IMG/VR virus record: IMGVR_UViG_3300028888_000051
Location: 1 to 64,000 of that record
DNA: 64,000 bases
Reading direction: 5' to 3' (one strand)
Source: a virus
Taxonomy: Duplodnaviria > Heunggongvirae > Uroviricota > Caudoviricetes
Below are positions 13,101-62,925 of the stretch, piece after piece. The position numbers and the translations under genes were made by a program. The first letter of the stretch is position 1. Each line of letters opens with the position of its first letter. Under the pieces are notes generated by a model. The model ran no database searches, was not told where the DNA came from, and worked only from the letters and a program-made list of their open reading frames with translations.

Positions 13101-13168
13101 TATCATTTTGAATTAATGGCTTTACTTTTTATATAGTATATTATATTTATTATTTATATATAATAGTA

Positions 13169-13537: not shown

Positions 13538-13591
13538 TTTTTTGTGGTTTTACATTTTGGATAATTTATTTTATTTTTTATTAAAATTTTT

Positions 13592-14268: not shown

Positions 14269-14295
14269 ATTTGTTAAATATAAAGGAATTAATAA

Positions 14296-15189: not shown

Positions 15190-15277
15190 CTATATATAAT
15201 TATAGCTTTACATTTTAAAAATAATAAATATAATTAATATAATTGATATTTAGATTATAGATTAAAGGGAAATTGAT

Positions 15278-29287: not shown

Positions 29288-29288
29288 T

Positions 29289-29887: not shown

Positions 29888-30239
29888 TATTTCCTTTCAA
29901 AATTTCTTGTATTAAACCTGTTTGAATAGCTAATACTGTTTTAGCACAATTACCATCTAATAATTTAAAAAGCGTATCATATTGATTCTTTGTTTCATCA
30001 TCAGCAGCTCTCCAAAGTTTACGATATATAAAACTATATAATTCATCAAGGTCTAATTTTTCAATAAAATCGTTAATACAATCTTTAATGTTATAATCTT
30101 TTATACAACAACCTAAATTAATTTCTATATCGCGTATATCACGTATAGCCTTAAATATATTATACTTTAATTTTGATATATCTTCGAGAGTTTGTACCTC
30201 GTAATCTTCATAATAATCACGATTATAGTCATAATTCAT
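29871..30239 (-). CDS. Y.TLFKL module protein
   Basis: ETKNQYDTLFKLLDGNCAKTVL; AAGGAG RBS before MNYD. Confidence 0.6.
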   Translation of the reverse strand: MNYDYNRDYYEDYEVQTLEDISKLKYNIFKAIRDIRDIEINLGCCIKDYNIKDCINDFIEKLDLDELYSFIYRKLWRAADDETKNQYDTLFKLLDGNCAKTVLAIQTGLIQEILKGNNDASR

Positions 30240-32482: not shown

Positions 32483-32535
32483 AATTAACTCCTTATATAT
32501 TAATTATATAATAGATAAAGCAAATAGTAAAGCCA

Positions 32536-33216: not shown

Positions 33217-33786
33217 TCAATTTTCTACAATAAATGATATTTTATTCATTTTTAAATTAAGTGATTTTACTTCATTTTTTATTAAATTCCAAAGTATTTC
33301 TTTATTTAAATATACTTCTTTAGTAGTTATATGTTTAATAATTTTACTATGTTGACATATTTTTTTACATTCATTTCTAGTTTTAAAAGATTTTTTATCT
33401 ATTAAAATTCTAGCAGGATTTGGTTTATTTATAGCAATACATTTATAAACTGCAATTTTACCAGGTATTAAATTATATGTTTCATAATGATGTACATATT
33501 CTCTATATTTTGCTTTTTTATTGTTATGTGTAATAATTAGCTCTCTTCCTATTTCACTTTCTTTTACTGAATTAGTTCGTTCTATTTCACCAGTCATTTT
33601 AAATAATGTAAGATATTCATTAAGTTTTTTATCAGTATGTATTGGTTCAACTAATTCTAATACAATTTGATGATAAGATTGATTACCTAATTTATTAGAT
33701 AAATAATAATCATCTGTCAAATATAGATATTTAGGAAAATTAAAAAATTTTGACATATTATTATATATCCTTTTGAGGTCTAACAA
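33217..33786 (-). CDS. Hypothetical protein with an internal NEYLTLFKM motif
   Basis: ORF translation. Confidence 0.55.
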   Translation of the reverse strand: MLDLKRIYNNMSKFFNFPKYLYLTDDYYLSNKLGNQSYHQIVLELVEPIHTDKKLNEYLTLFKMTGEIERTNSVKESEIGRELIITHNNKKAKYREYVHHYETYNLIPGKIAVYKCIAINKPNPARILIDKKSFKTRNECKKICQHSKIIKHITTKEVYLNKEILWNLIKNEVKSLNLKMNKISFIVEN

Positions 33787-34990: not shown

Positions 34991-35064
34991 TTAATATCCT
35001 TTCTTTTAATACATCATTTGATTTATAATAATTATATAATTATTATTTTATAAAGTAAAACCAT

Positions 35065-35827: not shown

Positions 35828-36190
35828 TCATTTTAAATTATTTATCATATTTATAACACTACTTATCGGTATTAATTTATTTGCCCAAAATACAATATTC
35901 TTATCTAATTTTTTATTTTTAATTATTTCATAATTTTCTTCATTTCCAGAATACATAATAACTTTTGTTTTAAGATTATTATCATCTAAATATTTTAACA
36001 TTTCTAATGCAGTTTCATTTTGCATATCATAATCTGAAATTATAACACGTGCTTTTTTATATAATTCTTTTTCTACAAGAGAAGGCATTTCAAATTGTTT
36101 TAAAATATAATTAGAAAATTTAGAAAAAGCTAATTTAAAACTCTCTCTAACTATATAATCATCCTCTAAATGTATAATTATTTTATTCAT
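35828..36190 (-). CDS. Single-domain response regulator (CheY-like receiver)
   Basis: LEDD, ISDYDM phosphoacceptor, MYSG, conserved K. Confidence 0.8.
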   Translation of the reverse strand: MNKIIIHLEDDYIVRESFKLAFSKFSNYILKQFEMPSLVEKELYKKARVIISDYDMQNETALEMLKYLDDNNLKTKVIMYSGNEENYEIIKNKKLDKNIVFWANKLIPISSVINMINNLK

Positions 36191-37512: not shown

Positions 37513-38205
37513 CTATTTAATTTGTAAAGCCTTTTTACATTCTTTTAAAATTTTATTGATCCAACCTTTATTCATTTCTATTATATTAACATTTGGATTA
37601 TTTATCATTGTATAAGCTGCTAAAGAATGTGTTGCAACAATTATTTGTACATTTTTATTTAAAATACATAAATTTTCAAACCATTTAAATAATCCAAATT
37701 GCATATTTAATGCCATATTATTATCTGGTTCATCTGCAATAATTATACAATTATTATCATATTCTATCTTATTATCAACTAATTCTTTAATTTGTTCATC
37801 ATTTAATTTATGGGTTTTTTTAAGATTTTCTGAAAACCAAGTATGATAATCATAATTACTTTCTCCTCTACTAGAAAAATGACCAGAAATAGCAGTAAAT
37901 ATATCACAACTCATACTATTAAAATCAGGGGCCTCAAAAATTTCATTTGGATTATATTTGATTATTTTACTAACTTTACCTTTTGCTCTAGCATCAAGAT
38001 ATTTTTGAAAATTTAAAAAATCATTTTGCTTAGGACCATTATAACATTTTCTATAACCATTATATTGTTCAATTAATGCTAATAATGATGATTTACCACT
38101 AGTATTTGCTCCAACAATTATATTAAGTCCTGGTTTAAATATAAATTCACGAAAATCAGAATTCTTGAATCTTTCATTTCTTCTAACTTCTAAATATTCA
38201 ATCAT
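37513..38205 (-). CDS. Stand-alone ABC/AAA_21-type ATPase
   Basis: GANTSGKS, SRGE signature, IIADEPD, ATHS. Confidence 0.85.
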   Translation of the reverse strand: MIEYLEVRRNERFKNSDFREFIFKPGLNIIVGANTSGKSSLLALIEQYNGYRKCYNGPKQNDFLNFQKYLDARAKGKVSKIIKYNPNEIFEAPDFNSMSCDIFTAISGHFSSRGESNYDYHTWFSENLKKTHKLNDEQIKELVDNKIEYDNNCIIIADEPDNNMALNMQFGLFKWFENLCILNKNVQIIVATHSLAAYTMINNPNVNIIEMNKGWINKILKECKKALQIK

Positions 38206-38210: not shown

Positions 38211-38600
38211 TTATTTCCTTAAAAGTAAAAGACTTAATAAATCTTTTTTATGTCTTTCGCCATTTTTTGTAAGTTTAACTTTAAGTGTAGTTTGAAAATA
38301 TTTTTGAGCCTTTATATGTAAAATATCTAGTATTTCTAAATACTTGTTTAATTGATAAAAATTAATAAAATCATTTATTAATTTTTCATTTAATTTGTAA
38401 TCTTCTGTATTTATCATAAATGCTATACCAAACTCATCAGTTTTATTATTATAATCTATATAATCTATAGTAACACAATAAGGTTTTATATATTTCACAA
38501 AAGTACCATATATAACCTTAAAAAGTTTCGATGTTACTGTATATTTCATATCTTTTGCCCATTTATTTATTTTATATAAATATTGTATACTATTTTTCAT
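38211..38600 (-). CDS. Array protein, weak tag
   Basis: LNKYLEI segment; ends DLLSLLLLRK. Confidence 0.55.
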   Translation of the reverse strand: MKNSIQYLYKINKWAKDMKYTVTSKLFKVIYGTFVKYIKPYCVTIDYIDYNNKTDEFGIAFMINTEDYKLNEKLINDFINFYQLNKYLEILDILHIKAQKYFQTTLKVKLTKNGERHKKDLLSLLLLRK

Positions 38601-38616
38601 ATAAAGTAAAGCCTTT

Positions 38617-39000
38617 TCAATCTATACTATTTAAAGTTTCTGTATATCCAAATAAAGCTAATAAACCTATTATAAATTCTATGTCATCTTTTGTTATGTT
38701 ATTTTTTAAACTTATTTTTGCAGCATAACTATTAGGATTTTTACCATATTCAATATCTATAAATTTACGAATACCGTCTTGACTTAATTTATATTCAAAA
38801 GAAGTTTGTAAATTATTATTATCATAAAAAGTATTATAATATAGATTAAGCTCTATTGTATAATATAAAGTAGATGAACTACCTACTACAACTTTATTCT
38901 TTTTAGTCGTAAATTTTTGCATTGTAGCTTTTAAATAATCTATAAGCATCCACCAACATTTTATTTTTGGTTCAACATTTTCTAACCAATTAATTGACAT
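38617..39000 (-). CDS. Array protein, weak tag
   Basis: IRKFIDI...ISLKNN...IEFIIGLLAL. Confidence 0.55.
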   Translation of the reverse strand: MSINWLENVEPKIKCWWMLIDYLKATMQKFTTKKNKVVVGSSSTLYYTIELNLYYNTFYDNNNLQTSFEYKLSQDGIRKFIDIEYGKNPNSYAAKISLKNNITKDDIEFIIGLLALFGYTETLNSID

Positions 39001-39004
39001 TATA

Positions 39005-39466
39005 TTACCTCATAGTATTTTCTATTAAAATTAAATTTTTCGTAATATCTAAATATCTAATATCTCGATCTACAAAAATAATTAAATTTTTTTGTGTAAT
39101 ATTACTAGCTCTTGGAAATAAAGCGGTATTAGCATCAAAATATTTTTTAAAAAATTCAATTAATACTTCTCTATATGATTTATGCTTTTCTTTAATTATA
39201 GAAAAATAAATCAATGTAGCTAAATCATTTGAAATTTTAAATTCTATATACACAGGAAAAGAATTTTTCATAACTGTAAATAATTTTTTATCAGAATATC
39301 TATTTTTATCATAATATTTACCGTATCTGCCATTTTTACATAAATAATTTTTGCTAAAATGCCAAATTTTATATTCTGGACATATTTTGGTTAACCATTT
39401 TATAAATTTATCACGCCTATTACCCTCTATAATTAACCAATGTGTTTTTCCAATTTCTTCTAACAT
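39005..39466 (-). CDS. Hypothetical array protein
   Basis: Internal NDLATLIY. Confidence 0.55.
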   Translation of the reverse strand: MLEEIGKTHWLIIEGNRRDKFIKWLTKICPEYKIWHFSKNYLCKNGRYGKYYDKNRYSDKKLFTVMKNSFPVYIEFKISNDLATLIYFSIIKEKHKSYREVLIEFFKKYFDANTALFPRASNITQKNLIIFVDRDIRYLDITKNLILIENTMR

Positions 39467-40212
39467 TTATTATTTTTCCTATAACTATATGCATATTCTA
39501 AGGCTTCTTCAAGTGTATCATCAAAATATTTTTTTATATCTTTCGATGGCATAAAACTAAAAGCAGCATTTAAATAAAGACTAGTTAAATTTATATAAAG
39601 TTGAGATGCATTTTTACCTTGTTTATATAAATCATATGCATATTCTTTTTCTAATTTACATTTTTTCATAAGGTAAACAATAAATAATTTATAGTCATTT
39701 GGTTTTAGATGACAGAAATATGTATGATCTTTTTTATCAATAAAATCATGTTTACTATAATTAGTTAAATTTACTTTATATATTATTATTTCTTTATGTT
39801 GATTATCATATGTATTTTTTAATTGTTTAATTCTAGCTTTTCCTTCTTTTTGTCCACACGAAATAGCTGTTTTGACTATTCTTTTTAACCAATGGCTTTT
39901 TTCTTCATTATGATATTTAGTTTCTAAAATATCTTTTGATAAATTCTCTATATTAAACCAAACTGTATCAGCATATTGTTTAAATATAGAAAAAGGATTA
40001 TTATAATTTTTAAGTGAATTGTCTATATAATTACTAATTTCATTTTTTTCATACATATCTCTTTCTACAATCCAATCAAAGCATATATCATTTAAATCTT
40101 TTCCAACTAAATTTTTTAAATAGACAAGATTAAAAAAGATAGTACGATAAGAAAAATAAATTTTATCGCCTTCATAAAAATTAATAGTTATCATATCCTT
40201 TTCTTCAGTCAT
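39460..40212 (-). CDS. Hypothetical protein
   Basis: Own promoter and RBS. Confidence 0.6.
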   Translation of the reverse strand: MTEEKDMITINFYEGDKIYFSYRTIFFNLVYLKNLVGKDLNDICFDWIVERDMYEKNEISNYIDNSLKNYNNPFSIFKQYADTVWFNIENLSKDILETKYHNEEKSHWLKRIVKTAISCGQKEGKARIKQLKNTYDNQHKEIIIYKVNLTNYSKHDFIDKKDHTYFCHLKPNDYKLFIVYLMKKCKLEKEYAYDLYKQGKNASQLYINLTSLYLNAAFSFMPSKDIKKYFDDTLEEALEYAYSYRKNNKC

Positions 40213-40283
40213 TTTAATTTCCTTAATGTGGATAATATATTAATATTTATACTATATATAATTACAGATGTAAAGCCGTTAAT

Positions 40284-40619
40284 TCATAAAAGGTTTTTGA
40301 TTTTTAATAAAACATACATTTCTTCTATTGTAATTTGTTTATATTCTAATTCTTCTATTTCAGTTGACATAAATTCATTTATAGATTTAAAAATTATTTT
40401 GCTTTTACTTTTTTCTAATCCTAATTTTTCTAAAAATAATTTCCGTATATCAGAAGCAATAGAATAACCAGAATCAAATATTTTATATTTAATATTCATA
40501 GTTTTACGATATTTATTAAAATATACATAATCTAAACACCACATAGCAGCTGGTATATTATTATCAATTAATTTAAAGATTGTTTCACATACTATATCAT
40601 TATCAAAATACAAATCCAA
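40284..40619 (-). CDS. C-terminal tag family protein
   Basis: Ends EEMYVLLKIKNLL; start uncertain. Confidence 0.6.
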   Translation of the reverse strand: MDLYFDNDIVCETIFKLIDNNIPAAMWCLDYVYFNKYRKTMNIKYKIFDSGYSIASDIRKLFLEKLGLEKSKSKIIFKSINEFMSTEIEELEYKQITIEEMYVLLKIKNLL

Positions 40620-40710
40620 AGCACTCCATTAAATATATACCGCTATATATTATTAAAAAACTTAATAACAATATAATTAATAAATCTAAAGTATCAAATT
40701 CCATATTATA

Positions 40711-41067
40711 TTAATCTCCAAAAACCATCTTTAAATACACATAAAAATAATTTATATCATCTTTTATTTCAAAGCATAAATATTCTTTACGATAATCTTT
40801 TTCTAAATATTTTAAATTATATTTTTCACATATTTCTTTTACTATGTTTTTTCTATTTTTACAAATTTTAAAATATATTATTTTGAAATTTGAATGAATT
40901 AAATGTCTATAATATTTTCCATATCCATCACTATATGCTAATATATGTCTTTTTAATACTCGACAATTTAAAGAATAATTAAAAGAATATCTAACATGAC
41001 GTTCAATTATCTCTAAGCATTCATCATACTTCTCTAAATATTCTTTAGTTATATCTAAATTATTCAT
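40711..41067 (-). CDS. C-terminal tag family protein, subfamily A
   Basis: Ends NYFYVYLKMVFGD. Confidence 0.65.
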   Translation of the reverse strand: MNNLDITKEYLEKYDECLEIIERHVRYSFNYSLNCRVLKRHILAYSDGYGKYYRHLIHSNFKIIYFKICKNRKNIVKEICEKYNLKYLEKDYRKEYLCFEIKDDINYFYVYLKMVFGD

Positions 41068-41389
41068 ATTTTTCCCTATATGATAGTTTATATAAAGTAA
41101 CTATATTAAATACTTCATTTAAATATTCTTCTTTAAAACTTAGTTGTAAATAAGTAATTAGTTCACTATTTGTATATTGAAAATCAAAATATTTATCTAT
41201 ATTAAAATATTTCAAATAAAAATTTATTCGATCTATTGGGTTTATTATTAAAAATGATATATACCAATTACTTAAACTAAGTTTATAAGTAAAAAGTTCA
41301 TCATTTGAATATGATAATGATGAAACATTACATGTATTGTATATTATCTTATTTGTTAACCAATTTGCTAATTCTATTTCTTTACTCAT
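41060..41389 (-). CDS. C-terminal tag family protein, subfamily B
   Basis: Ends NIVTLYKLSYREKYE. Confidence 0.65.
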   Translation of the reverse strand: MSKEIELANWLTNKIIYNTCNVSSLSYSNDELFTYKLSLSNWYISFLIINPIDRINFYLKYFNIDKYFDFQYTNSELITYLQLSFKEEYLNEVFNIVTLYKLSYREKYE

Positions 41390-41732
41390 TTTGTTCCATT
41401 AATTTATAACTAATAATTATCTCTTCTGTTTGATTTAAATATTTTTTATTAAATTGAAGTGTAATAGCTGATCCAGGTTCATATATACTTGTTGGATTGG
41501 TATAATCTGCATCTAAATATTTATTTAATAATTTTTTATTAATATAATCTTGTAAAGTTCCACAAATTTCTCTTGCATCCCTATATTCAACTTCTAAATA
41601 TACAATCATTATTCCTGATTCTATTACAGATAAAGGAGCATTTAAAGCCTTATGCATAACATATATAAGAAAATCATTAATCAAATCAATTCTTTTTTGA
41701 TATAAATCTTCTTTTTTTAATAAATTATTCAT
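41382..41732 (-). CDS. C-terminal tag family protein, subfamily B
   Basis: Ends EEIIISYKLMEQNE. Confidence 0.65.
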   Translation of the reverse strand: MNNLLKKEDLYQKRIDLINDFLIYVMHKALNAPLSVIESGIMIVYLEVEYRDAREICGTLQDYINKKLLNKYLDADYTNPTSIYEPGSAITLQFNKKYLNQTEEIIISYKLMEQNE

Positions 41733-42029
41733 TTATACTTCCTTTAATTTCATTAATGTATATAAATCTGCAAAAGAACTACCACTGTTAAACGGAGCTC
41801 CACACATTACTACAAATTGTTCATCTTCATCAATTTTTTTACCTTTAGCTGCTCCAATATAATATTTTATTTCTTTTGTTAAGGTATCTAATACTTTAAC
41901 GATACCAATAGTATTAAGTTCACCTTTATCCATATAATGATATGTTGTTAAAGGAAACCAAATACTATCAATTATAACAAAATTAGTCATACCATAACAT
42001 TTAACTCTACGCTTATTTGTATCAGTCAT
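41733..42029 (-). CDS. Unrelated small phage domain with the tag appended
   Basis: IGIV...YIG...G...DEQ....GA.F, then NSGSS linker and ADLYTLMKL. Confidence 0.65.
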   Translation of the reverse strand: MTDTNKRRVKCYGMTNFVIIDSIWFPLTTYHYMDKGELNTIGIVKVLDTLTKEIKYYIGAAKGKKIDEDEQFVVMCGAPFNSGSSFADLYTLMKLKEV

Positions 42030-42096
42030 ATTTTTTATCCTTTAATTTTTAACTATATAGTATTATATAAATTTATATAATGTAAAACCATCTAAA

Positions 42097-42453
42097 TCAT
42101 ATTAATCCCATTAATTTTATCAATGTCAAAAATTCATTAAATTCTATTTCAGTTAAGTTATTTTTTAATTTTATTTTAATTGAATAGTTTGATATATTTA
42201 CTTTAATATAATTATCAAAATTTTTATTTTTTAAATATTGTTCAATACTATGTTTTATCATATATAAAGCATTATTTAATCCAATTTTATCATAATTTGG
42301 ATTATCTATTAATTTGAATTTTACTTTTGCAGAACCATCATAATTATGCCAAATATTTCCAAACAAAGTTTTATCATACTTAATTATGTGTGAAACAAGT
42401 ATTTCATATAAAATCATTGAAATTTTAGTTAGTTCTTGATTATTAATAATCAT
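42097..42453 (-). CDS. C-terminal tag family protein, subfamily B
   Basis: Ends NEFLTLIKLMGLI. Confidence 0.65.
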   Translation of the reverse strand: MIINNQELTKISMILYEILVSHIIKYDKTLFGNIWHNYDGSAKVKFKLIDNPNYDKIGLNNALYMIKHSIEQYLKNKNFDNYIKVNISNYSIKIKLKNNLTEIEFNEFLTLIKLMGLI

Positions 42454-42457
42454 ATTT

Positions 42458-42853
42458 TTATTCCTTATTACTTATAAATTTACATAATGTATACAATTCA
42501 TTAAATTTATCATTAGATATATAAAAACTTAAATGTTTCAATCTATAATTTTCATTTTCTAAACAAAGACCAAAATTTTTCATGATATTTTCACTTTTCT
42601 TTCTACGATTTGTTTTACTCCACACATTAAATTTAATTAAATTATTTGGTATATTATTAAATTGTATATGTACAAACCCTTCTGAATAAATATAACAACC
42701 ATCTGTAATCCTATCACCATTAGATTCCCAATGATCATTTAAAGTATTAATAATAAAATTATATTTTTTATTAAATTCATTAATATCTTTAATAAATTTT
42801 ACACGCTCAATTAATTGCATTTCAACAGCTTTTATAATTTTATTTTCTTTCAT
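42458..42853 (-). CDS. C-terminal tag family protein, subfamily A
   Basis: Ends NELYTLCKFISNKE. Confidence 0.65.
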   Translation of the reverse strand: MKENKIIKAVEMQLIERVKFIKDINEFNKKYNFIINTLNDHWESNGDRITDGCYIYSEGFVHIQFNNIPNNLIKFNVWSKTNRRKKSENIMKNFGLCLENENYRLKHLSFYISNDKFNELYTLCKFISNKE

Positions 42854-42904
42854 GATACATTTCCTTTTTATTGATATATTTTTATTATCATTTATATGCA
42901 TAAA

Positions 42905-43336
42905 TCATTTAATTAACATTTTTGATAAAGTATATAAATCGTTAAACATATTTGATTGTATTTTAAATATATAATATTGACTTCTATAATTAATAATATC
43001 AATTGGAATTAAATCAAAAACATTCGTTAATTCTTCAACTAAAATTTTTCTTTTATTACCAAATGTAAATATAAATGTAATATAATCATCTTGAAGATTT
43101 GCTTTTTTTGATAATCTAAATAGATTATTTTTACTATTATTATCTATTTCAAATCCATTATGTATAATAAAAGATATATGACGTAAAAAAGATTTTGAAC
43201 TTTTACCATTATAAGCTAATTCAGTAGTTTTAAATTTATTACTTAAATACATAATAATATTACGATTTATATCATTATATATTTGTTCATATTCTGTGAT
43301 GTTTTTTGCTATAATTTCAAATTCATCTATAGTCAT
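42905..43336 (-). CDS. C-terminal tag family protein, subfamily A
   Basis: Ends NDLYTLSKMLIK. Confidence 0.65.
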   Translation of the reverse strand: MTIDEFEIIAKNITEYEQIYNDINRNIIMYLSNKFKTTELAYNGKSSKSFLRHISFIIHNGFEIDNNSKNNLFRLSKKANLQDDYITFIFTFGNKRKILVEELTNVFDLIPIDIINYRSQYYIFKIQSNMFNDLYTLSKMLIK

Positions 43337-43927
43337 TTAGATAATTCCTAACAATTTTATTGTGGTTAATGTATTATCAGAATCAATTATTTTATATATC
43401 ACACATTGTTTTTCAAAAGATCTCTCAATTTCTTGAATATCTAAAAGTTTAAATGTATTTTCTAAAGAATCTGTTAATTTACAAAATGGAATAAATAAGA
43501 TATTATTTAATTTATACTGATTTATATTTATGTAATTTTCAAAAAAATTAGTATGAATAAGTTTAAAATATATTATTTCTTTAACTAATTGATCTTTAAA
43601 TTTTTTTGGTAAAACTACATCATTGATAAATTCTGAAATTTTATCTTTATAAATAAATATTTGCTTTTTATTTAAAAATCCAAAACTATTTAATGCAAAT
43701 ATATCAGGATATTCTCTTTCTAATTGATCTACAATTTTAATAAATCTAGACTCATTAAAATGTCTACTTTTCATATAACCTATTTCATATCCATTTATTT
43801 CAGAATATGGAGATTCATTTACAAGAATAAGTCCTTGTTTATTTTGTATTCTGTCTGTAATTTTAATTAGTCTATTTAATTTATATTCAATTTTTGCTGT
43901 TGTTAAAAAATCTATACTTTTCAACAT
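43337..43927 (-). CDS. C-terminal tag family protein
   Basis: Ends DNTLTTIKLLGII. Confidence 0.65.
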   Translation of the reverse strand: MLKSIDFLTTAKIEYKLNRLIKITDRIQNKQGLILVNESPYSEINGYEIGYMKSRHFNESRFIKIVDQLEREYPDIFALNSFGFLNKKQIFIYKDKISEFINDVVLPKKFKDQLVKEIIYFKLIHTNFFENYININQYKLNNILFIPFCKLTDSLENTFKLLDIQEIERSFEKQCVIYKIIDSDNTLTTIKLLGII

Positions 43928-43949
43928 CTTTTTTTCCTTTCTATATAAA

Positions 43950-43981
43950 ATTATAGGCTTTACTTAGTTAAAAGTAAAGCC
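43950..43981 (-). promoter_or_regulatory. Palindromic sigma70-type promoter/hairpin
   Basis: Minus strand GGC-TTTACT-17 bp-TATAAT; ggctttactt/aagtaaagcc inverted repeat. Confidence 0.75.
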
Positions 43982-44009
43982 GTTTATAAAAATAAATAAA
44001 ATAAATTAT

Positions 44010-44435
44010 TTATAGATTACCATTAAATCCATATATATTATTAAATTTATATAACATTTTAATCATAGCTATTGTATTAGAGTCATTAGAATAGAGAGAG
44101 GCTTTTAATTTATTAAATTCTGGTATAAGATTATGATTATTTAATTCACGTAAATTAATATCAGCTAATTTTCTTAAACCACTATCTGTCCACATACCAA
44201 TATTTGCATGTGCTAAATTAGACCTATTTTCTAAAGCTGCTTCATTATGTTTATTTGTCAAAATACTTATAAATTGATCATTAGTTATACCATAATCAGC
44301 AAACTTTTTCTGTTTTTCTTTCCAATCACGATTATGAGCTTGTTTACTTAAAGTATCTATATTATAGATTTTTTCTTCTAATTTATGACAAGCTTCTCTA
44401 AACAATATTAAGTATTTATTCATATGATTAAACAT
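44010..44435 (-). CDS. Putative virion-internal protein, paralog 1
   Basis: MNKYLILFREACHKLEE leader; similar to 44428-44874 throughout. Confidence 0.6.
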   Translation of the reverse strand: MFNHMNKYLILFREACHKLEEKIYNIDTLSKQAHNRDWKEKQKKFADYGITNDQFISILTNKHNEAALENRSNLAHANIGMWTDSGLRKLADINLRELNNHNLIPEFNKLKASLYSNDSNTIAMIKMLYKFNNIYGFNGNL

Positions 44436-44874
44436 GTATATTATCTAAATCTGGATCATCACTAAATCTATAAAGCATTTTTACCATGGCTGTTGCATTT
44501 TTGTCAGCTGGATATAATATTTCTTTAAGTTTATTAAATGAATCAATACAACCTTTTTCTTTAACTATATCTAGCATTTTATTTCCTAATTTTTGTAACC
44601 CCAAATCTTGCCAATTACCAATTCTTGCTTGTGACATAAGATTACGATCTTGGATACCTCTTTCTGCTGCATTACCTACAACAGTACTAATAAATCTACC
44701 ATCAGCAATATCATATTTTTCAAATTTTTCTTTTTGCTGTTTCCAATTTGTAGTGTTAAATTGATTTGTATTTCTAAATGGATTTATATGAGATTTTAAT
44801 TTATTTGAACTATAAATATCTTCTTCTAATTTAGTAACAGCTTCTTTAAAAAGTTGTACATATTTATTTATCAT
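44428..44874 (-). CDS. Putative virion-internal protein, paralog 2
   Basis: MINKYVQLFKEAVTKLEE leader; AAGTTCTA upstream (44921-44928, minus). Confidence 0.6.
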   Translation of the reverse strand: MINKYVQLFKEAVTKLEEDIYSSNKLKSHINPFRNTNQFNTTNWKQQKEKFEKYDIADGRFISTVVGNAAERGIQDRNLMSQARIGNWQDLGLQKLGNKMLDIVKEKGCIDSFNKLKEILYPADKNATAMVKMLYRFSDDPDLDNIHV

Positions 44875-44965
44875 TTTATATTATATCCTTAATTTATATA
44901 TAAATTAAATATCTAAAAATTAGAACTTACACAACTAATAAAAAATAATATATATTTAATGGTTT

Positions 44966-45298
44966 TTATCTCAATATTTTCCATAATGTATAAACTTCAT
45001 CTAAAAATTCGGATTTATTTGAAAGAGGGTAGAGTTTAAGAATATAAAATTCACCACCTGTACCTTGTAGTTTTACACCTAAATAATTTTCAAAACCTAG
45101 TTTATTTATATATTGTTGCAAACCAAAATAATATCGATTGGGCTTTTGTTGATAATGAATATAACGCATAATACAAGGTTGATCTAGATTAGTTTTTACA
45201 ATTACTTTTTTACGTAATGTTTGTTTATTAAGACTATCAAACCAAGACAAATAGATATCTTTTAATAATTCAATAACTTGTTCTGAATCTAACATCAT
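44966..45298 (-). CDS. C-terminal tag family protein, subfamily B
   Basis: Ends DEVYTLWKILR. Confidence 0.65.
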   Translation of the reverse strand: MMLDSEQVIELLKDIYLSWFDSLNKQTLRKKVIVKTNLDQPCIMRYIHYQQKPNRYYFGLQQYINKLGFENYLGVKLQGTGGEFYILKLYPLSNKSEFLDEVYTLWKILR

Positions 45299-45738
45299 AT
45301 TTTTCCTTCCAGCTTTAATAATGTATAAAGATTGTCAAAAGCCTCTCTGAGTATAAATAAACTTTTTTCAGATTTACGATAGTATTCTGGTTGAATTATA
45401 GAAAGTCCAAATGTATCTTGTAAAGTTTTACAAATTTGTCTACGTTTACGTGGTATCTGAAAGGTAAATTTAACGATAGTTTTATTATTTTCAACAAATC
45501 TATATAATTTTTCTAATTTTTTACTTATACTATCAGATCTACATGGATCATCTAAATTATTATCTAAAAAAGCGATTAAACGCGGAATAGGAAGATCATA
45601 GGCATAAATAGTATAATGCAGTTTATTTCTTCGTATAGAATCACATATATATTCGAGAACTGCATAATATTCTTTGTTAAAATTAACAGCTACCTTACGT
45701 AATTCTTTATATTCTTTTTGCTTATCGTTAATATCCAT
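45295..45738 (-). CDS. C-terminal tag family protein, subfamily A
   Basis: Ends DNLYTLLKLEGKI. Confidence 0.65.
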   Translation of the reverse strand: MDINDKQKEYKELRKVAVNFNKEYYAVLEYICDSIRRNKLHYTIYAYDLPIPRLIAFLDNNLDDPCRSDSISKKLEKLYRFVENNKTIVKFTFQIPRKRRQICKTLQDTFGLSIIQPEYYRKSEKSLFILREAFDNLYTLLKLEGKI

Positions 45739-45757
45739 TTATCAATTCCTTATATTT

Positions 45758-45826
45758 ATAAATATAATTTAACCTATATTATATCTAAAGTAAAACCATC
45801 TTTAAACCATATTAAAATAATTTATG
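45758..45826 (-). repeat. About 70-bp promoter cassette, copy 1
   Basis: Near-identical to 47014-47082. Confidence 0.8.
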
Positions 45827-45889
45827 AAAAATGCATCTTAAAAAGGTTTATTTAATCTCATATAGTTTAAATGATATTCGAAAAGTTCT

Positions 45890-46243
45890 TTACTGATTAT
45901 TGATATTTTTATTTTCCCAAAAATCTTGTAATTTAAGTACAGTTTCTAAATCTTCCATTTGATCTATGTATTCTTTTTTAAGAATAATATGTATAGAAGA
46001 CTTATATCTTTTTATATTAAAATAACCGTCTATGTTTTTATCTCTAAAACTTTTTCTTATTTCTGCATAATGCGATTCACTAGCCCAATTTTCTGTATAA
46101 AAAATAACTCCTGGTTCTTTATTGTTATATTCAACAAGATTAAATCCATCAAGTGTAATACAATTTTTTAAAACTTCTAGACAAAAATGATTTGCATTTT
46201 CATGTCTAAATCTCGCTTCTTCTGAAATACCGATGGCTATCAT
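45890..46243 (-). CDS. C-terminal tag family protein, subfamily B, paralog of 49722-50048
   Basis: HENANHFC...EYNN.PG; EDLETVLKL. Confidence 0.65.
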   Translation of the reverse strand: MIAIGISEEARFRHENANHFCLEVLKNCITLDGFNLVEYNNKEPGVIFYTENWASESHYAEIRKSFRDKNIDGYFNIKRYKSSIHIILKKEYIDQMEDLETVLKLQDFWENKNINNQ

Positions 46244-46259
46244 GATTATTCTCTTTTTA

Positions 46260-46643
46260 TTAATTTACATATATACAAAGCAAAGTATAAAGCATATTTA
46301 TATCATTAGTTTCTAAAACATAATATGTATTTGCATAATTTTTGGCATATACATCTATACGCTTTATATTAAAATTTGTTTCAAGATAATTTATAAGTTT
46401 TTTTCTATTTTTCCATACTCTTAAAATAAATCTTACTCCAGTATTTTTATCATAGGTATATGACACAGCATCATATGGAGCTGAATCAAATATATCTCCG
46501 CGAAAAGTATAAGCGTAATTTTTGTATAAAAAAGTACTATAGTGATAAAAATAATCTGTTGTTGGATTAACCTTCATAAATTCATACAAAATGTCATTTA
46601 ATTTATTAATAGTTTCTGTATATAATCTTTCTTCACAAATCAT
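46260..46643 (-). CDS. C-terminal tag family protein, subfamily A
   Basis: Ends NMLYTLLCIYVN. Confidence 0.65.
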   Translation of the reverse strand: MICEERLYTETINKLNDILYEFMKVNPTTDYFYHYSTFLYKNYAYTFRGDIFDSAPYDAVSYTYDKNTGVRFILRVWKNRKKLINYLETNFNIKRIDVYAKNYANTYYVLETNDINMLYTLLCIYVN

Positions 46644-46996
46644 TATATTTCCTCTAATAAATATAACAAATCAAACATCTTCATATAAACATATAAATAA
46701 TTTAAACCCTCATCATTTTTATAATTATTTTTGAAGTTAAGAATAAATTGATTTTCATCAGATATAATTTTAAGGTCTATAAAATATTCCAAACCAGTAG
46801 TATAAAGAAAATCCCTTGTATTTTTACTAAAAGATACTTGTCCAGTTATAGAAGGATCAATTTTATACATAACCAAATATACTGTTAAATCAGGTGTTTT
46901 TGCATTATGAGCATATTCAAATTGGACTACTTTATCACCATTACATGTCAAAATTATATTCTTCAAAAGATGTGTGATTTCATTTAATTGAATCAT
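46643..46996 (-). CDS. C-terminal tag family protein, subfamily B
   Basis: NYLYVYMKMF near the C-terminus. Confidence 0.65.
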   Translation of the reverse strand: MIQLNEITHLLKNIILTCNGDKVVQFEYAHNAKTPDLTVYLVMYKIDPSITGQVSFSKNTRDFLYTTGLEYFIDLKIISDENQFILNFKNNYKNDEGLNYLYVYMKMFDLLYLLEEI

Positions 46997-47013
46997 GATT
47001 ATCCCTTTCATTC

Positions 47014-47082
47014 ATAAATATAATTTAACCTATATTATATCCAAAGTAAAACCGTTTTTAAGCCACATTAAAATAATCTATG
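47014..47082 (-). repeat. About 70-bp promoter cassette, copy 2
   Basis: Near-identical to 45758-45826. Confidence 0.8.
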
Positions 47083-47125
47083 GTGCATCAAGTTATTGAG
47101 GTTATATTACAATATAAAAGATATC

Positions 47126-47536
47126 TTAGTTAGCCATTATTTTAGCTAATGTACAAAGCTCATCAAAATTTTCTCGTGGAATCTTAAAGCTAAAAGTCTG
47201 CATCCTATAGTCATGTGTATAACTAGGAATTAAACCAAAGATTTCTACAAGTCTTTGACATATTTGTTTACGTTTATTGAACATATAAAAAGTTATGTTA
47301 AAATATTGATTTGGTGTATTATTTTTATAACCAATTTTAGCAGCTAAATTATTTAATCTTTCATTATCATCTGTGTGCATAGTATATAACATAGATTTAT
47401 AATTTATACCACTAAATGCTGGTTTTATACCGAATTCATTTTTAACATATTGCTGTATATTACGCATCATTTCATTATATCTATCTTGATGGTTTATAGC
47501 ATAATTATAAAAATCTTCAAATTCTTTACTTGTCAT
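47126..47536 (-). CDS. C-terminal tag family protein, subfamily A
   Basis: Ends DELCTLAKIMAN. Confidence 0.65.
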   Translation of the reverse strand: MTSKEFEDFYNYAINHQDRYNEMMRNIQQYVKNEFGIKPAFSGINYKSMLYTMHTDDNERLNNLAAKIGYKNNTPNQYFNITFYMFNKRKQICQRLVEIFGLIPSYTHDYRMQTFSFKIPRENFDELCTLAKIMAN

Positions 47537-47537
47537 G

Positions 47538-47912
47538 TTATATCTCCGTCATTTTACAAATCATATATAAATCATTGAAATCATCAAAATCTATATAAAA
47601 TATATAATGCGATTCATAGATATAAGTTCCATCATCTGGTTTAAGACCGAATGTATTTTTAAGATAAATTTCTACTTCATCACTTCTATCATCTACAGCA
47701 AACCAAAGTTTTCTTAATTTTACAAAATAATTATCCAACGATCCAATGCCAGCTAATTTAAAGCCAGAAGAATCTAAGTATCCAGGTACTATACGTATAT
47801 CTCTACTAAATCTTTTTTGTAAATTTTCAGATATAATACTAGTTACTAAAATAAATTTATCCCAATGTGGATATAATTCTGGCATATATACTGATATTTC
47901 ATCATTGATCAT
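47538..47912 (-). CDS. C-terminal tag family protein, subfamily A
   Basis: Ends NDLYMICKMTEI. Confidence 0.65.
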   Translation of the reverse strand: MINDEISVYMPELYPHWDKFILVTSIISENLQKRFSRDIRIVPGYLDSSGFKLAGIGSLDNYFVKLRKLWFAVDDRSDEVEIYLKNTFGLKPDDGTYIYESHYIFYIDFDDFNDLYMICKMTEI

Positions 47913-47970
47913 GATTTATTCCTTTCGTTAACTATATATAATAATATATAAATGGCTATTGTAAAACTGT

Positions 47971-48936
47971 TTAATTCATTAACTTTATTAAAGTATTTAT
48001 TTCATCATAAGGAAAATCATTAGTTATTTTTATATAATCAAAATTTGTTTTATAATAGTTTTTGCTATCTATTTCACTTGGTTTAAATGAACCTAATTCA
48101 AAGTACTTTTCTAAATTAAACTGTTTTACACCAGCTTTAAATCTATCTACAAAATTACTATTATTTTCTTTATATATAAATATATTATTTCCAAAATAGG
48201 TAATCTCAGGACTATATTCGTTTCTTTTATGAATATTCTCTAATGTATTAATTATTCTATTTATCTTTTTATCCTCTTCTATTTTTATCTTTCTATTTAA
48301 TTCATACATATCAAATTCTAATCCAAGTAAATGTAAATGTTTTTGTAATTCGCCTATATGGCTTTTACTACAATAGAAATTAAAAATTCTGAATTGTCTC
48401 ATTGTAACTAAATCATAATATGTATATATACCATAAAACATTAAACCTAAAATAGTATTAGTCGATAAAGTTTCAAATGCGATTCTATGTTTTAATTTCT
48501 CTTCAAAAGATAATTTATTTAAATTATTAAAAACTTCCATTAAATTATTTTTGAGTATCTTTTCCATATACTTTTCTTGATCTTTTTCAGCTAGACCTGG
48601 ATATATAGGTTTTGCATATTTTCTATTTAAAGCATAACCATTTACTGGATTAGTATTAGCGTATCCTGTTGATTTCACTTTGAACAAAACTTTTTCTTCA
48701 CATAATTTATTCATTATTTCTTTTAAATTATCAGGACACAGTGGCTTATATTTTCTATATTCATCTATATATTTTTTTGACCTACATTTAGCTAATATAT
48801 CATTTTCAAATATTAATACATGCTCTAATATTTGTCCTTCATATTCAGCTAATATAGCATTATTATATTCAGAAAAGCATTCCATAACTACTCTTTTTAT
48901 TAACATATATAAATCATTCCATTTGGCTGAATCCAT
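47971..48936 (-). CDS. Multidomain protein with an RNAP alpha-CTD-like domain and the C-terminal tag
   Basis: LSTNTILGLMFYGIYTYYDLV...ELQKHLHLLGLEFDM; ends DEINTLIKLMN. Confidence 0.6.
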   Translation of the reverse strand: MDSAKWNDLYMLIKRVVMECFSEYNNAILAEYEGQILEHVLIFENDILAKCRSKKYIDEYRKYKPLCPDNLKEIMNKLCEEKVLFKVKSTGYANTNPVNGYALNRKYAKPIYPGLAEKDQEKYMEKILKNNLMEVFNNLNKLSFEEKLKHRIAFETLSTNTILGLMFYGIYTYYDLVTMRQFRIFNFYCSKSHIGELQKHLHLLGLEFDMYELNRKIKIEEDKKINRIINTLENIHKRNEYSPEITYFGNNIFIYKENNSNFVDRFKAGVKQFNLEKYFELGSFKPSEIDSKNYYKTNFDYIKITNDFPYDEINTLIKLMN

Positions 48937-49050
48937 AATATTATTCCTTTTACTAATGTTAACTATACATATATAATAGTATATAAAGAAAGAAAAGTAA
49001 AGCCATAGAAGCTAAAATTAAGTTCTAATTAAAAGATTATTTTTTATAAA

Positions 49051-49725
49051 ATGGATAAAGCTATGAATAAATATATACAAAAATTTAGAGAATCTATAGC
49101 TAAATTAAATGAAGAACAAATTATATATCGTACTTATGCAGATAAGCCATATTTAAATAATATAGATGGTAGTTTTATGAATAAACCATCTAAAGGTTTG
49201 TGGGGTTGTAGAGATAATGGTTGGAAAGAATGGTGTGAAGAGAATGATTTTGGTTATGACTCACATTATTTTGAATGGACATTAAAACCAGAATCTAAAT
49301 TATATACTGTTAGCAATAAAAATGATTTTATATATTTATTAAAAAATTATCAATTAGAAGAATCTGATGGTAATGTATTTATAGATTATTCAAAATTAGC
49401 TAAAGATTATGATGCCATTGAATTAACTAAAAATGGTAACATGGATCTTCATTATGGTATAGAAACAGATGATCCTGAATTGCAAGATCCTAAATATAGA
49501 ATAGCCTTAACAATGGCTATGAATACATGGGATGTACCTAGTATATGTGTATTTAATCCAAGTAAAACTGTAAACGTTATTAATAAACCTATTGAAGAAG
49601 ATACAGTTAAGCAAGGTAATTCATGGACAAATAAAGGAAAAGAAGGCACACATGGTACCTTCAAGACTAAAAAACAAGCTGATGCTCAAAGAAAAGCTAT
49701 GTTTGCAAATGGATATAAAGGTTAA
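49051..49725 (+). CDS. Putative late or virion-internal protein
   Basis: MNKYIQKFRESIAKLNEE leader; AGTTCTA at 49021; basic C-terminal module. Confidence 0.6.
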   Translation: MDKAMNKYIQKFRESIAKLNEEQIIYRTYADKPYLNNIDGSFMNKPSKGLWGCRDNGWKEWCEENDFGYDSHYFEWTLKPESKLYTVSNKNDFIYLLKNYQLEESDGNVFIDYSKLAKDYDAIELTKNGNMDLHYGIETDDPELQDPKYRIALTMAMNTWDVPSICVFNPSKTVNVINKPIEEDTVKQGNSWTNKGKEGTHGTFKTKKQADAQRKAMFANGYKG

Positions 49726-50048
49726 ATTATTCCTTGTATTTTAAATAAGGTTTCTAATTCTTGTATTTGATTTACATATTCTTTTTTAAGATTAATTTGT
49801 ATTGAATACTGATATTCTTTAATGTCAAAATATATATCTATTGTATAATTTTTTAAAATTTTTTCAATCATACGCATATAATTAAAGCTAGTATTATTAC
49901 ATTTAACTATAATTCCAGGAACAAAATTATTATATTCAATATCTTCAAAAGAAGACCACATAATAAATTTACTTAAAAGATTAAAGCAAAAGTGATTAGC
50001 TTGCTCATGTTGCCATTGTAATTCTTCAGCTATATTTGATGAAATCAT
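49722..50048 (-). CDS. C-terminal tag family protein, subfamily B
   Basis: HEQANHFC; ends QELETLFKIQGII. Confidence 0.65.
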   Translation of the reverse strand: MISSNIAEELQWQHEQANHFCFNLLSKFIMWSSFEDIEYNNFVPGIIVKCNNTSFNYMRMIEKILKNYTIDIYFDIKEYQYSIQINLKKEYVNQIQELETLFKIQGII

Positions 50049-51751: not shown

Positions 51752-51821
51752 GATATTATTCCTTTTATTATCATTAACTATATATATAATATAGTATATA
51801 TAATAACAAAAGTAAAACCGT

Positions 51822-57891: not shown

Positions 57892-58257
57892 CTATACATT
57901 AACTTTTATTTTTCTATCTACCGTTATATTAACTATACCTTTTGGATAGTCTTTGCCATAAGCTTCGTATAAGTCAGTATATAGATGTTGTATGAGTCTT
58001 ACATGATCTTTAGTTAAATGCATATATTGTTCTTTTTCTATATCAACGCCAGTATATATAATAAATTTATAATATGCTTTAGTCATAGCTTCTAGCATTT
58101 CATCTGGGTCTGAATGATTATAATAGCGTCCAATAGGATGTACACACATCATATTCCAAATACCAGACTGCTGAACAGCCATATAAGCCCAAAACATTTC
58201 TTTTGGAATAGCTGACATGTATATGAGATTTTTAAATTTATCATCTACTTCACTCAT
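57892..58257 (-). CDS. Hypothetical protein
   Basis: AY..VQ.SG..NM; coupled ORF. Confidence 0.6.
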   Translation of the reverse strand: MSEVDDKFKNLIYMSAIPKEMFWAYMAVQQSGIWNMMCVHPIGRYYNHSDPDEMLEAMTKAYYKFIIYTGVDIEKEQYMHLTKDHVRLIQHLYTDLYEAYGKDYPKGIVNITVDRKIKVNV

Positions 58258-58607
58258 CTCTGTTCTCCTTCGACTAATTTATTCATTACAAAATATGTTT
58301 CTATTTCATTTTCAGTCATATAGAATAAAGTATTTTCATCATATAGACAATCATTAGGGAATCTATGTAATGCTAAACCTCTGCTTTCAAATACTTTTTG
58401 CATATCTCTAAGTATATCTAGAGCTAATTCTTTAAATGCATATGGAAAGTGAAATTGCCAATGACCTTTATTATCATATAAAGGCTGAGCTACTTCACCT
58501 GTTTCAGCAATTATATTTTCTAAAAGAATACTCAAAGTCTTTTTTAATTTAGGCTTTTGCCGAAGTCTTGCCATTGCATCTAATCTTCTTTTAGTTAAAT
58601 CAGTCAT
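58254..58607 (-). CDS. Hypothetical protein with a tag-like C-terminus
   Basis: NEIETYFVMNKL. Confidence 0.6.
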   Translation of the reverse strand: MTDLTKRRLDAMARLRQKPKLKKTLSILLENIIAETGEVAQPLYDNKGHWQFHFPYAFKELALDILRDMQKVFESRGLALHRFPNDCLYDENTLFYMTENEIETYFVMNKLVEGEQR

Positions 58608-58627: not shown

Positions 58628-58903
58628 TTAATTTGATAGTTTATTACATATATAGAAATCAGTAAAGTCTTTATGACTCATTTTAAATATGTGTTTAGTT
58701 TCTTCATATGGAATACCATATAAATCAGCATTAGTTTTAATAAGAGTAATAAAAAGATTTTGTGGATCTTTCTCATTAATACTTTTATATATAATAAGTT
58801 CTTTATCTGTTACACGTAGTATTCCACCTTCTTCTAAATTTTGTGCAATACTAGTTGTCAGATTGGCTATTTGTTCCATCTCTTGAGTTGTTAATCGTGT
58901 CAT
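58628..58903 (-). CDS. Hypothetical protein with a tag-like C-terminus
   Basis: DFTDFYICNKLSN. Confidence 0.6.
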   Translation of the reverse strand: MTRLTTQEMEQIANLTTSIAQNLEEGGILRVTDKELIIYKSINEKDPQNLFITLIKTNADLYGIPYEETKHIFKMSHKDFTDFYICNKLSN

Positions 58904-61768: not shown

Positions 61769-62614
61769 TTACAAAATATCTTTAGTTTGGATTTTAAATT
61801 CTAATGGATTACAACAATTTTCATTAAGTTTGTTTGTAATGGCATCAAATACAGTATCTATAGATAATCTATTTGCATTTAATATTTCTCTAAATTTACC
61901 ATCAAACATTTCATTAAAAATTTCTTCTTTAAATTTAACTAATGTTTTTAATAATTCAGATCTAAATTTATCTTCTGCTTTAAGAGTCAGAGCAATTGTA
62001 TTACCTCCATCACTAAGTGTTGCTAAATCACTAAAAGAATATTTATTTAGTCCAACAAACTTTAAATCATTTTCTAAAGATGCTGCATACATTGTATTAA
62101 ATACTTTTAGCTTATAATCATTTCTCAAAGCAGGTTCAGGATATTTTTCTGTAGGAATATATTTTACAGAATCTTTTAGAATAGCAAATGTTTTAAAATG
62201 TTTACGTTTATTTCTTTCATTATTAAATGATGATGTACCAAGACCAAATCTTTTGGTATTATAAAAATTAAGTACTTCTGGATAATCATTTCTAGCTAAA
62301 TAAATATTTGCATATTTTACAAAACTATCTATTGTACCTGTATTATTTTGATAGCAAGCATTAGTAACTGCTTCCCAACAATAAGAAAACAAATTAACTT
62401 CAACTACTTCATATTCGAAAACATCACATTCATCTCTATTTACTTTTTCAATATCCTCTTTATCAATAACAAAAGCTCTTTTTGAATATGATATATCATT
62501 ACTAAATACTTGTGATACTGTACCTTCTAAAGTATATAGACTACCAATATCATTACATAAAGCATCTTTACGTATATTTACATAATATTTTTTTCTAGTA
62601 TTCATATCTAACAT
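61769..62614 (-). CDS. Hypothetical protein
   Basis: 281-aa ORF with RBS. Confidence 0.65.
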   Translation of the reverse strand: MLDMNTRKKYYVNIRKDALCNDIGSLYTLEGTVSQVFSNDISYSKRAFVIDKEDIEKVNRDECDVFEYEVVEVNLFSYCWEAVTNACYQNNTGTIDSFVKYANIYLARNDYPEVLNFYNTKRFGLGTSSFNNERNKRKHFKTFAILKDSVKYIPTEKYPEPALRNDYKLKVFNTMYAASLENDLKFVGLNKYSFSDLATLSDGGNTIALTLKAEDKFRSELLKTLVKFKEEIFNEMFDGKFREILNANRLSIDTVFDAITNKLNENCCNPLEFKIQTKDIL

Positions 62615-62925
62615 ATTATATCTCCTTTCAATTTATAAAAAGTCACAAGTGATTCAAGTTGTTCATCAGTAATAACAATAACATTACTTCCATATAAAGG
62701 AAGAAGTAAGCCACAATCATTTTTTATCACAGCTCTAAGCTCTCGTGTTTTAAGATCTTGATAAGCTCGACTACCACAATAACCAGCACAAATCCAATTG
62801 ATATCATCATTGGCATTTATTATATATCTGGTTTTAGGTGTAAAGATATCAGCTGTTACAAAAATACGTTTATAAATTATTTTTTTCATATTTTTATAAA
62901 GTAATGCTCTTTGATATTCTTTCAT
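62608..62925 (-). CDS. Hypothetical protein with the C-terminal tag
   Basis: Ends ESLVTFYKLKGDIIC. Confidence 0.6.
   Translation of the reverse strand: MKEYQRALLYKNMKKIIYKRIFVTADIFTPKTRYIINANDDINWICAGYCGSRAYQDLKTRELRAVIKNDCGLLLPLYGSNVIVITDEQLESLVTFYKLKGDIIC

Follow-up and report, generated by a model that had tools for sequence, protein, structure and literature searches.

We describe a family of small, divergent proteins in the virus record IMGVR_UViG_3300028888_000051 (Caudoviricetes), a single contig of 227,383 bp with 26.6% G+C, of which the first 64 kb (positions 1 to 64,000, hereafter the window) were analyzed in detail. These proteins, referred to here as carriers, end in variants of one helix with the consensus [DN][ED]LYTLxK[LM], which is 10-13 residues long and amphipathic, with a lysine near its end. 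An initial annotation, made from the sequence alone, had taken this helix for a portable tag that docks unrelated proteins onto a common hub. Our analysis favors a different reading, namely that the motif is probably, for the most part, the signature of an expanded and fast-evolving family of one small alpha/beta domain, with the terminal helix as its conserved core, and not a free tag.

The motif itself is well founded. All 18 C-terminal strings listed for the open reading frames between 40284 and 50048 are present, on minus-strand frames and 2-12 residues ahead of the stop codon, and the same holds for the extra copies reported at 62608 (ESLVTFYKL) and, in weaker form, at 58254 and 58628, as well as for the internal copies in 33217 (NEYLTLFKM) and in five genes at 28644-30266 (EYxTLLKL type). 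Its enrichment at C-termini exceeds compositional expectation. With the loose pattern [LIVMF][YLVIECNT][TVMI][LVIFY]xK[LIMF], counted within 15 residues of the C-terminus, 20 C-termini among the 303 proteins match, compared to 1.4 +/- 1.2 in residue shuffles (maximum 6 in 200), and there are seven internal matches; a strict pattern, L[YCE]T[LV]xK[LIMF], gives 8 against 0. When carriers were scored with a leave-one-out weight matrix, 20 of 28 exceeded the best C-terminus of all 275 non-carriers and three further ones were outscored by at most two non-carriers. Carriers 41060, 41382, 43337, 58254, and 75297 are not separated from non-carriers by the motif alone. Genome-wide there are 30 carriers, including two degenerate members (38211 and 38617), and they account for 9.9% of the called genes and 5.3% of the genome; 23 are located in the window and seven outside it (74222, 75297, 75626, 76138, 203233, 203774, and 220616). 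Their median length is 122 amino acids (aa) and almost all are single-domain in size. Across carriers the best-kept positions include the polar Lys (26 of 28), Thr (20 of 28), and Tyr (17 of 28).

Relationships among the carrier bodies become visible once the helix is taken out of the comparison. BLAST alone links just five genes and one pair (45890 and 49722), but after deletion of the helix from query and targets alike, a profile built on the five recovers 40711 (E=8e-4) and 46260. We then compared groups by hhalign on helix-less alignments enlarged with orthologues from two related contigs, L004 and L007. This comparison connects the 40711 group to the 42458 group with a probability of 89%, 38617 to 42097 with 65%, 42097 to 45890 with 52%, 41060 to 45890 with 50%, and 42097 to 44966 with 24%, and every one of these alignments spans the 40-60 residues immediately upstream of the helix. 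In profile comparisons, 47971 and L007_11754 join cluster B (defined below) over 72-82 columns. At least 17 carriers thus fall into two profile-linked clusters after removal of the helix, cluster A with seven genes of the window (42458, 42905, 45295, 47126, 47538, 40711, and 46260) and cluster B with about ten (42097, 45890, 49722, 41060, 41382, 44966, 38617, the C-terminal part of 47971, and probably 46643 and 38211). By profile, similarity outside the helix was found within A and within B, and neither between A and B nor for 41733, an exceptional carrier discussed below. The claim of a portable tag on unrelated bodies is only partly supported, by the different body of 41733 and not by the 17 or more carriers that remain linked without the helix.

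Structure prediction was carried out on one member of each cluster, and it speaks against the earlier suggestion of several unrelated groups of bodies, as both models have the same secondary-structure order. The AlphaFold model of 42905 from cluster A (predicted local distance difference test, pLDDT, 72.9) has a long N-terminal helix, a poorly modelled middle part, and then E85-91 H96-107 E121-127 H128-142 (E, strand; H, helix), with a pLDDT of 87-95 over the motif helix. The model of 42097 from cluster B (pLDDT 84.3, predicted template modelling score 0.77) reads H5-26 E30-37 E41-48 H56-76 E83-88 E91-96 H102-114. Both share the same C-terminal half, strand-helix-strand-strand-helix, in which the motif is the last helix, has a pLDDT of 84-95 over the two models, and starts 0-5 residues past the last strand. 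Because it is joined directly to that strand and is confidently placed, the motif helix would belong to the domain and would not sit on a flexible linker, and we infer from the models that it is buried against its own domain.

Similarities to known folds are generic. The two models have five of their top 50 structural neighbors in common among 48,161 chains, where about 0.05 would be expected by chance, and these common neighbors include permuted ferredoxin-like domains of the EpsL/PilO type. Most structural matches stop just ahead of the motif helix, and the core can for that reason be described, on the basis of the models, as a ferredoxin-like sandwich extended by a single C-terminal helix. 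In fold searches (PDB by Foldseek, VIA wide, BFVD, and ESM Atlas), the neighbors were all two-layer alpha/beta sandwiches of a generic kind (best Z 7.9, Foldseek E >= 3e-3, TM <= 0.6), and none gave a functional lead. Matches to EpsL/EpsM/PilO-type domains, in which two helix-strand-strand repeats make up a four-stranded sheet with two helices, had Z scores of 6.1 (2w7v_B) and 6.1 (6ghu_A) for the cluster B model and of 5.2 (2rjz_B), 3.9 (2w7v_B), and 3.9 (1uv7_B) for the cluster A model, all within the range of common arrangements. The modelled carriers resemble these domains and phage tail-terminator-like alpha/beta sandwiches in the core order helix-strand-strand-helix-strand-strand (Z 3.9-6.1), but these scores lie below the level of kinship, the matches end before the motif helix, and neither sequence similarity nor a common context connects them. 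For the LAGLIDADG homing endonuclease domain, whose fold runs helix-strand-strand-helix-strand-strand-helix with an acidic catalytic residue closing helix 1, there were weak Foldseek rows for the cluster A model (E 0.27-0.7, TM 0.24-0.33) and an agreeing secondary-structure order for the cluster B model; a LAGLIDADG-like Gly-rich motif was not seen in helix 1 of the alignments of the two clusters (A2 and A3). A homodimer prediction for 42097 scored 0.02, which weighs neither for nor against binding.

Given these results, we propose that the carriers (approximately 90-150 aa and presumably early) would mostly have arisen by tandem duplication and divergence of a single small alpha/beta domain. 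The C-terminal half of this domain would consist of a strand, a helix usually ending in hydrophobic-Gly/Asn-hydrophobic, two further strands, capping residues, and the amphipathic helix. This last helix may be the sole part still recognizable across subfamilies because it is the slowest-evolving element, and its place close to the stop codon would reflect that the domain ends there. The bodies would diversify quickly through duplication, loss, and divergence, and such fast evolution would fit proteins that bind host targets in host takeover or anti-defense. At least once (41733) the helix-coding 3' end would have been placed on a body of other origin, and apparently once (33217) it would have become internal by fusion. 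Since the profiles of A and B align over the helix only, their proposed common ancestry rests on the shared secondary-structure order and on shared weak structural neighbors; we presume a single origin of clusters A and B and of the dispersed copies.

Carriers outside the two clusters may be read in the same way. When they are anchored on the motif, nearly all have a helix whose end reads hydrophobic-Gly/Asn-hydrophobic, followed by a pair of short strands and by a capping box (often Ser/Thr/Asp/Asn-x-x-Glu) ahead of the motif helix. A strand-like pattern upstream of the helix is found in 75% of carriers vs 34% of the background, and the helix-end pattern in 64% vs 29%, figures to be read in light of the fact that both patterns were picked after inspection and that paralogues are not independent. 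For the dispersed carrier 62608, the alignment of orthologues could be interpreted as helix-strand-strand-helix-strand-strand-helix. The gene 33217 looks like the converse of 41733: a small carrier-like N-terminal part would have lost its stop codon and thereby been fused to the next 120 residues. In the five genes at 28644-30266, a common module [AEQN][EQ]Yx[TVI]L[LF]KL is followed by an NYxKTVL-like sequence, and what precedes the motif there looks like an acidic helix instead of a strand. In 47971, residues 5-16 contain WNDLYMLIKRV (WRALYELIKAV in the orthologue), a helix that resembles the motif but lies at the other end of this protein. The coordinates of all these features are compiled in Table 1.

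Table 1. Carriers of the C-terminal helix, related copies, and promoter-like sites in the window.
Feature	Position	Strand	Evidence
Cluster A carrier, 147 aa, ends NELYTLCKF	42458..42901	-	BLAST group of five; alignment A2
Cluster A carrier, 143 aa, ends NDLYTLSKM, modelled member	42905..43336	-	AlphaFold (AF2) model
Cluster A carrier, 147 aa, ends DNLYTLLKL	45295..45738	-	BLAST group of five, A2; metagenome orthologues 75-82% identical
Cluster A carrier, 136 aa, ends DELCTLAKI	47126..47536	-	BLAST group of five, A2
Cluster A carrier, 124 aa, ends NDLYMICKM	47538..47912	-	BLAST group of five, A2
Cluster A carrier, 118 aa, ends NYFYVYLKM	40711..41067	-	Helix-less profile E=8e-4; hhalign 89%
Cluster A carrier, 127 aa, ends NMLYTLLCI	46260..46643	-	Helix-less profile and hhalign
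Cluster B carrier, 118 aa, ends NEFLTLIKL, modelled member	42097..42453	-	AlphaFold (AF2) model
Cluster B carrier, 117 aa, ends EDLETVLKL + 12 aa	45890..46243	-	Helix-less hhalign 52% to 42097, 50% to 41060
Cluster B carrier, 108 aa, ends QELETLFKI	49722..50048	-	BLAST pair with 45890
Cluster B carrier, 109 aa, ends NIVTLYKL	41060..41389	-	hhalign, alignment A3
Cluster B carrier, 116 aa, ends EEIIISYKL	41382..41732	-	Alignment A3
Cluster B carrier, 110 aa, ends DEVYTLWKI	44966..45298	-	Helix-less hhalign 24% to 42097; A3
Probable cluster B carrier, 122 aa, ends NYLYVYMKM + 10 aa	46643..47011	-	A3, placed by eye; weak profile support
Cluster B member, degenerate helix IEFIIGLLAL, no Lys	38617..39000	-	Helix-less hhalign 65% to 42097
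Probable cluster B member, degenerate helix DLLSLLLL	38211..38600	-	Aligns in A3; profile support weak
Carrier, 321 aa; C-terminal ~75 aa cluster B-type domain after 245-aa N-terminal extension	47971..48936	-	hhalign 53%, 72 columns to A3
Exceptional carrier; beta-rich body of separate family, variable G/S-rich loop, canonical helix ADLYTLMKL	41733..42029	-	Motif-less body homologues in unrelated phages
Unclustered carrier, ends EEMYVLLKI	40284..40619	-	Motif matrix; helix alone aligns to A or B
Unclustered carrier, 196 aa, weak motif DNTLTTIKL	43337..43927	-	Motif string; not separated by matrix
Dispersed carrier, 105 aa, ends ESLVTFYKL	62608..62925	-	Helix invariant in six orthologues
Weak carrier, ETYFVMNKL	58254..58607	-	Not distinguished by motif alone
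Weak carrier, TDFYICNKL	58628..58903	-	Matrix 7.8 bits; 0/275 non-carriers higher
Five tandem genes, internal EYxTLLKL-type copy then 25-45 residues	28644..30266	-	Matrix match in 28871, 13.9 bits
Internal copy NEYLTLFKM at ~residue 55/189, then TGEI as in carrier tails	33217..33786	-	Matrix 19.3 bits
Promoter-like G[TC]TTTAC...TATAWT, examples	42062-42088, 43950-43980, 35031-35061, 32503-32533, 51788-51818	-	Pattern match

The carrier at 41733 departs from this scheme. Its body is without an N-terminal helix and has homologues (P0053-P0056, 39-43% identical) in small unrelated phages (approximately 37-43 kb, 33% G+C) whose capsid gene is a different one and whose recombinases are of the ERF or Rad52 type. 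These homologues end in KKEWLGDIINMFMER-like sequences with motif matrix scores of -12 to -14 bits, compared to 17.7 bits for 41733 and 17-25 bits for 41733 together with its orthologues in jumbo phages, and none of the 43-47 genes in the P0053-P0056 loci carries the motif. As the body family lacks the motif elsewhere, a body with its own separate origin can bear and retain the helix. Capture of a carrier 3' end inside the array would be the simplest route. The ESM Atlas model of 41733 is poor (pLDDT 0.46) and its neighbors are uninformative.

Several results weigh against the reading as one expanded domain family. Profile-profile comparison of cluster A with cluster B aligns the 15-column helix only, at 8% probability, and in about 12 carriers the body resembles neither A nor B apart from the strand and the helix. 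The polar Lys, Thr, and Tyr are among the best conserved positions, which goes beyond the needs of burial alone. Furthermore, in the jumbo-clade orthologues of 41733 the loop before the helix varies (NSGSS, SAGTN, NAGNH, EACGS) and the helix is nearly invariant, a pattern that looks like selection on the helix itself. The helix might accordingly be an autonomous docking module that ties many early effectors to one phage or host hub and spreads by recombination within the array. We consider this explanation unlikely, yet it keeps some weight because of the canonical helix conserved behind a variable loop on the otherwise motif-less body family of 41733, the helix-only profile match between A and B, and the conserved polar Tyr, Thr, and Lys; the genes at 28644-30266 and 33217, which hold the motif in another context, after a helix and away from the C-terminal end, also agree with it. 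It is opposed by the direct and confident placement of the helix after the last strand in both models, by the helix-independent homology inside A and inside B, and by the scans of Pfam and PHROGs, which bear out the initial annotation in that no carrier has a recognizable enzyme or structural domain. As for the proposed hub, no candidate was identified, and in more distant relatives, L012 among them, the Lys is replaced by Glu or Gln in some orthologue groups (LLFEL, IIFEL, ITLLQL), which is unexpected for a contact residue of one hub, while other groups on the same contig, in L012 the cluster A members, keep LYTLLKL. Such independent drift of the Lys between groups argues against one rigid contact common to all members, and a lineage-wide co-variation of the helix, which would favor a co-evolving hub, was not seen in L012. 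A fuller version of the docking explanation holds that the LYTLxK[LM] helix is a self-sufficient element recombined onto at least three kinds of body (the A/B type, the family of 41733, acquired from other phages, and the group at 28.6-30.2 kb) and couples some 30-36 fast-evolving early proteins to a single hub of the phage or the host. We regard this version as improbable; if true, it would represent a phage-encoded adaptor system with interchangeable heads.

Known terminal elements provide further comparisons. MinD and FtsA possess C-terminal amphipathic membrane-targeting helices, and the carrier helix, which is likewise terminal and amphipathic, spans 10-13 residues, and has a Lys close to its end, could in principle bring the family to the inner membrane. 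However, this helix is acidic in its N-terminal half ([DN][ED]), there is a single basic residue and no basic cluster, and the models have the helix abutting a strand with no linker, so that we hold membrane targeting to be very improbable. Sliding-clamp-binding motifs have a QL[SD]LF or QLxLxL-type consensus on a flexible end, which the carriers do not match, as their consensus has no Gln, is helical, and abuts a strand. T4 internal proteins bear an N-terminal capsid-targeting sequence, and elements of this and of the clamp-binding kind are peptides, extended or cleavable, at flexible ends of proteins whose known domains differ. The carrier element has in common with them that it is a short terminal element of otherwise divergent phage proteins, but in the models it is a capped helix joined to the last strand of a domain, and QL[SD]LF is absent.

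A signal in the DNA at gene 3' ends (promoter, ribosome-binding site, terminator, or recombination site), of which the motif would be a by-product, might be suspected in genes packed this tightly, where the 2-5 codons past the motif often hold the GGA or GGAG of the next gene. However, every conserved position shows synonymous variation, including Thr (ACA 11, ACT 7, ACC 2), Lys (AAA 20, AAG 6), and Leu, for which TTA, CTT, TTG, CTA, and CTG are all used, and conservative replacements are made through unrelated codons (TTA, ATG, ATA). Between the motif and the following ATG lie anywhere from 10 to 941 nt, and one carrier sits on the opposite strand. Selection acts on the protein and not on the DNA; codon variation and variable spacing rule out a DNA-level origin, to which we attach next to no probability. 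The residues past the motif (EGKI, KEV, TEI, KGDI, AGEI, and similar) overlap the GGA/GGAG just before the next ATG, and the tails after the motif are short and variable because their codons overlap the ribosome-binding site of the next gene. Among the carriers at 40284-50048, the GGA/GGAG in these codons commonly lies 5-12 nt ahead of the next ATG. Translational coupling is suggested by several carriers whose stop codon overlaps the start of the following gene (as ATGA, or by 4-8 nt).

Databases do not contain this family, but lineage-specific expansions in jumbo phages are already known as a kind (PMC7824862). Among the 28 carriers, none reaches the cut-off in Pfam-A (best E 0.0034) or lies above the family threshold in PHROGs (two matches at E ~0.009). 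Searches of the PDB by sequence with profiles A2, A3, and A5 gave nothing below E=0.2, and nothing specific was found in the literature on a described family of this kind. The cluster B profile, compared with 1.84 billion representative proteins, retrieves only 29 clusters, all of which agree in size and in their type of C-terminus; the family is confined to this clade of phages. Bacillus phage G harbors a zinc-ribbon family of about 35 copies that was called an unprecedented expansion (PMC7824862). Both cases involve tens of small, largely tandem paralogues of a single clade in one large phage genome and with no assigned role, whereas the family described here is an alpha/beta sandwich with a signature C-terminal helix, has no metal-binding residues, and belongs to a T4-like lineage of the ruminant gut.

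Carriers evolve several times faster than structural genes. Compared with their counterparts in L004 and L007 they are 27-89% identical, with ratios of non-synonymous to synonymous substitution rates (dN/dS) of 0.06-0.87. For the capsid protein of these loci, identity is 94-97% and dN/dS 0.04-0.08; the ratios are rough because dS is near saturation. The gene content of the array differs among relatives, and in L012 the array is shorter and broken by other genes. At positions 10317-15342 (minus strand) of L012, seven genes on the opposite strand, encoding 184-349 aa and not present in the array of the window, split it. One gene in ten of the window's phage belongs to a family undescribed in databases. 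Expansions of such size are rare in phages and usually mark an arms race with the host, and the carriers represent natural variants on one scaffold with one invariant helix. If it is true that the helix is a common binding surface, it would point to a central host-takeover target of an uncultured gut phage lineage; if it is not, the family would still illustrate cleanly how birth-and-death evolution and the capture of C-terminal modules shape the early region of a phage.

The initial annotation had placed early-type promoters before most of the carriers, and in agreement with this, promoter-like G[TC]TTTAC...TATAWT sites interrupt the array. In the window, G[TC]TTTAC-N13-19-TATAWT has 13 matches vs approximately 0.7 expected, with sites in the intergenic gaps of the array. 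Looser copies precede 45295, 46643, 47538, 47971, and 39460, and at 43956-43981 a promoter-like site overlaps a terminator-like hairpin. We take these sites to resemble T4 early promoters, and the carriers would presumably be expressed early. A generic sigma-70 scan of the array found 156 sites vs 141 expected and is uninformative because the DNA is AT-rich. T4-like hyperplastic early regions and SPO1-like host-takeover modules are blocks of small, fast-evolving early genes behind strong host-type promoters. The array is similar to them in its small and fast-evolving genes, its promoter-like sites, and its content varying between relatives, and differs in that one family fills most of the block, whereas those regions consist mostly of unrelated small genes. 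Three non-carriers in the array, at 44010-44435 (minus strand), 44428-44874 (minus strand), and 49051-49725 (plus strand), share the N-terminal leader MNKY..F[RK]E..KL[EN]E, the first two being tandem paralogues. This leader resembles the capsid-targeting sequence of T4 internal proteins, and by analogy the three may be injected internal proteins.

The phage is an uncultured T4-like, AT-rich jumbo phage of the ruminant gut. Its full stretch is present only in one sheep gut metagenome run, and bovine gut runs hold small shares of it; no RNA data set is listed among the public runs that contain it. The locus is syntenic with related contigs that encode a Gp23-type capsid gene, whose closest capsid matches in isolated phages are approximately 33% identical. 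No near relatives were detected in INPHARED phages (by DNA or protein) or in IMG/VR; relatives were found solely in ENA and Logan metagenome contigs, including L004, L007, and the more distant L012. The array is flanked by a Gp23-like gene on one side and an AAA_15-type ATPase on the other. Directly downstream of the array, an M16 (insulinase-type) peptidase (33761-34990), a receiver-domain protein (35828-36190), and the AAA_15/AAA_21-type ATPase (37513-38205) are encoded on the minus strand, in a synteny kept in relatives, and an NAD-dependent ligase is also located beyond the array. Elsewhere in the genome, outside the window, a BLAST cluster of four tandem paralogues of 288-348 aa at 185079-188834 (minus strand) has a Cys-rich end, CGH...DSDEC..CD.

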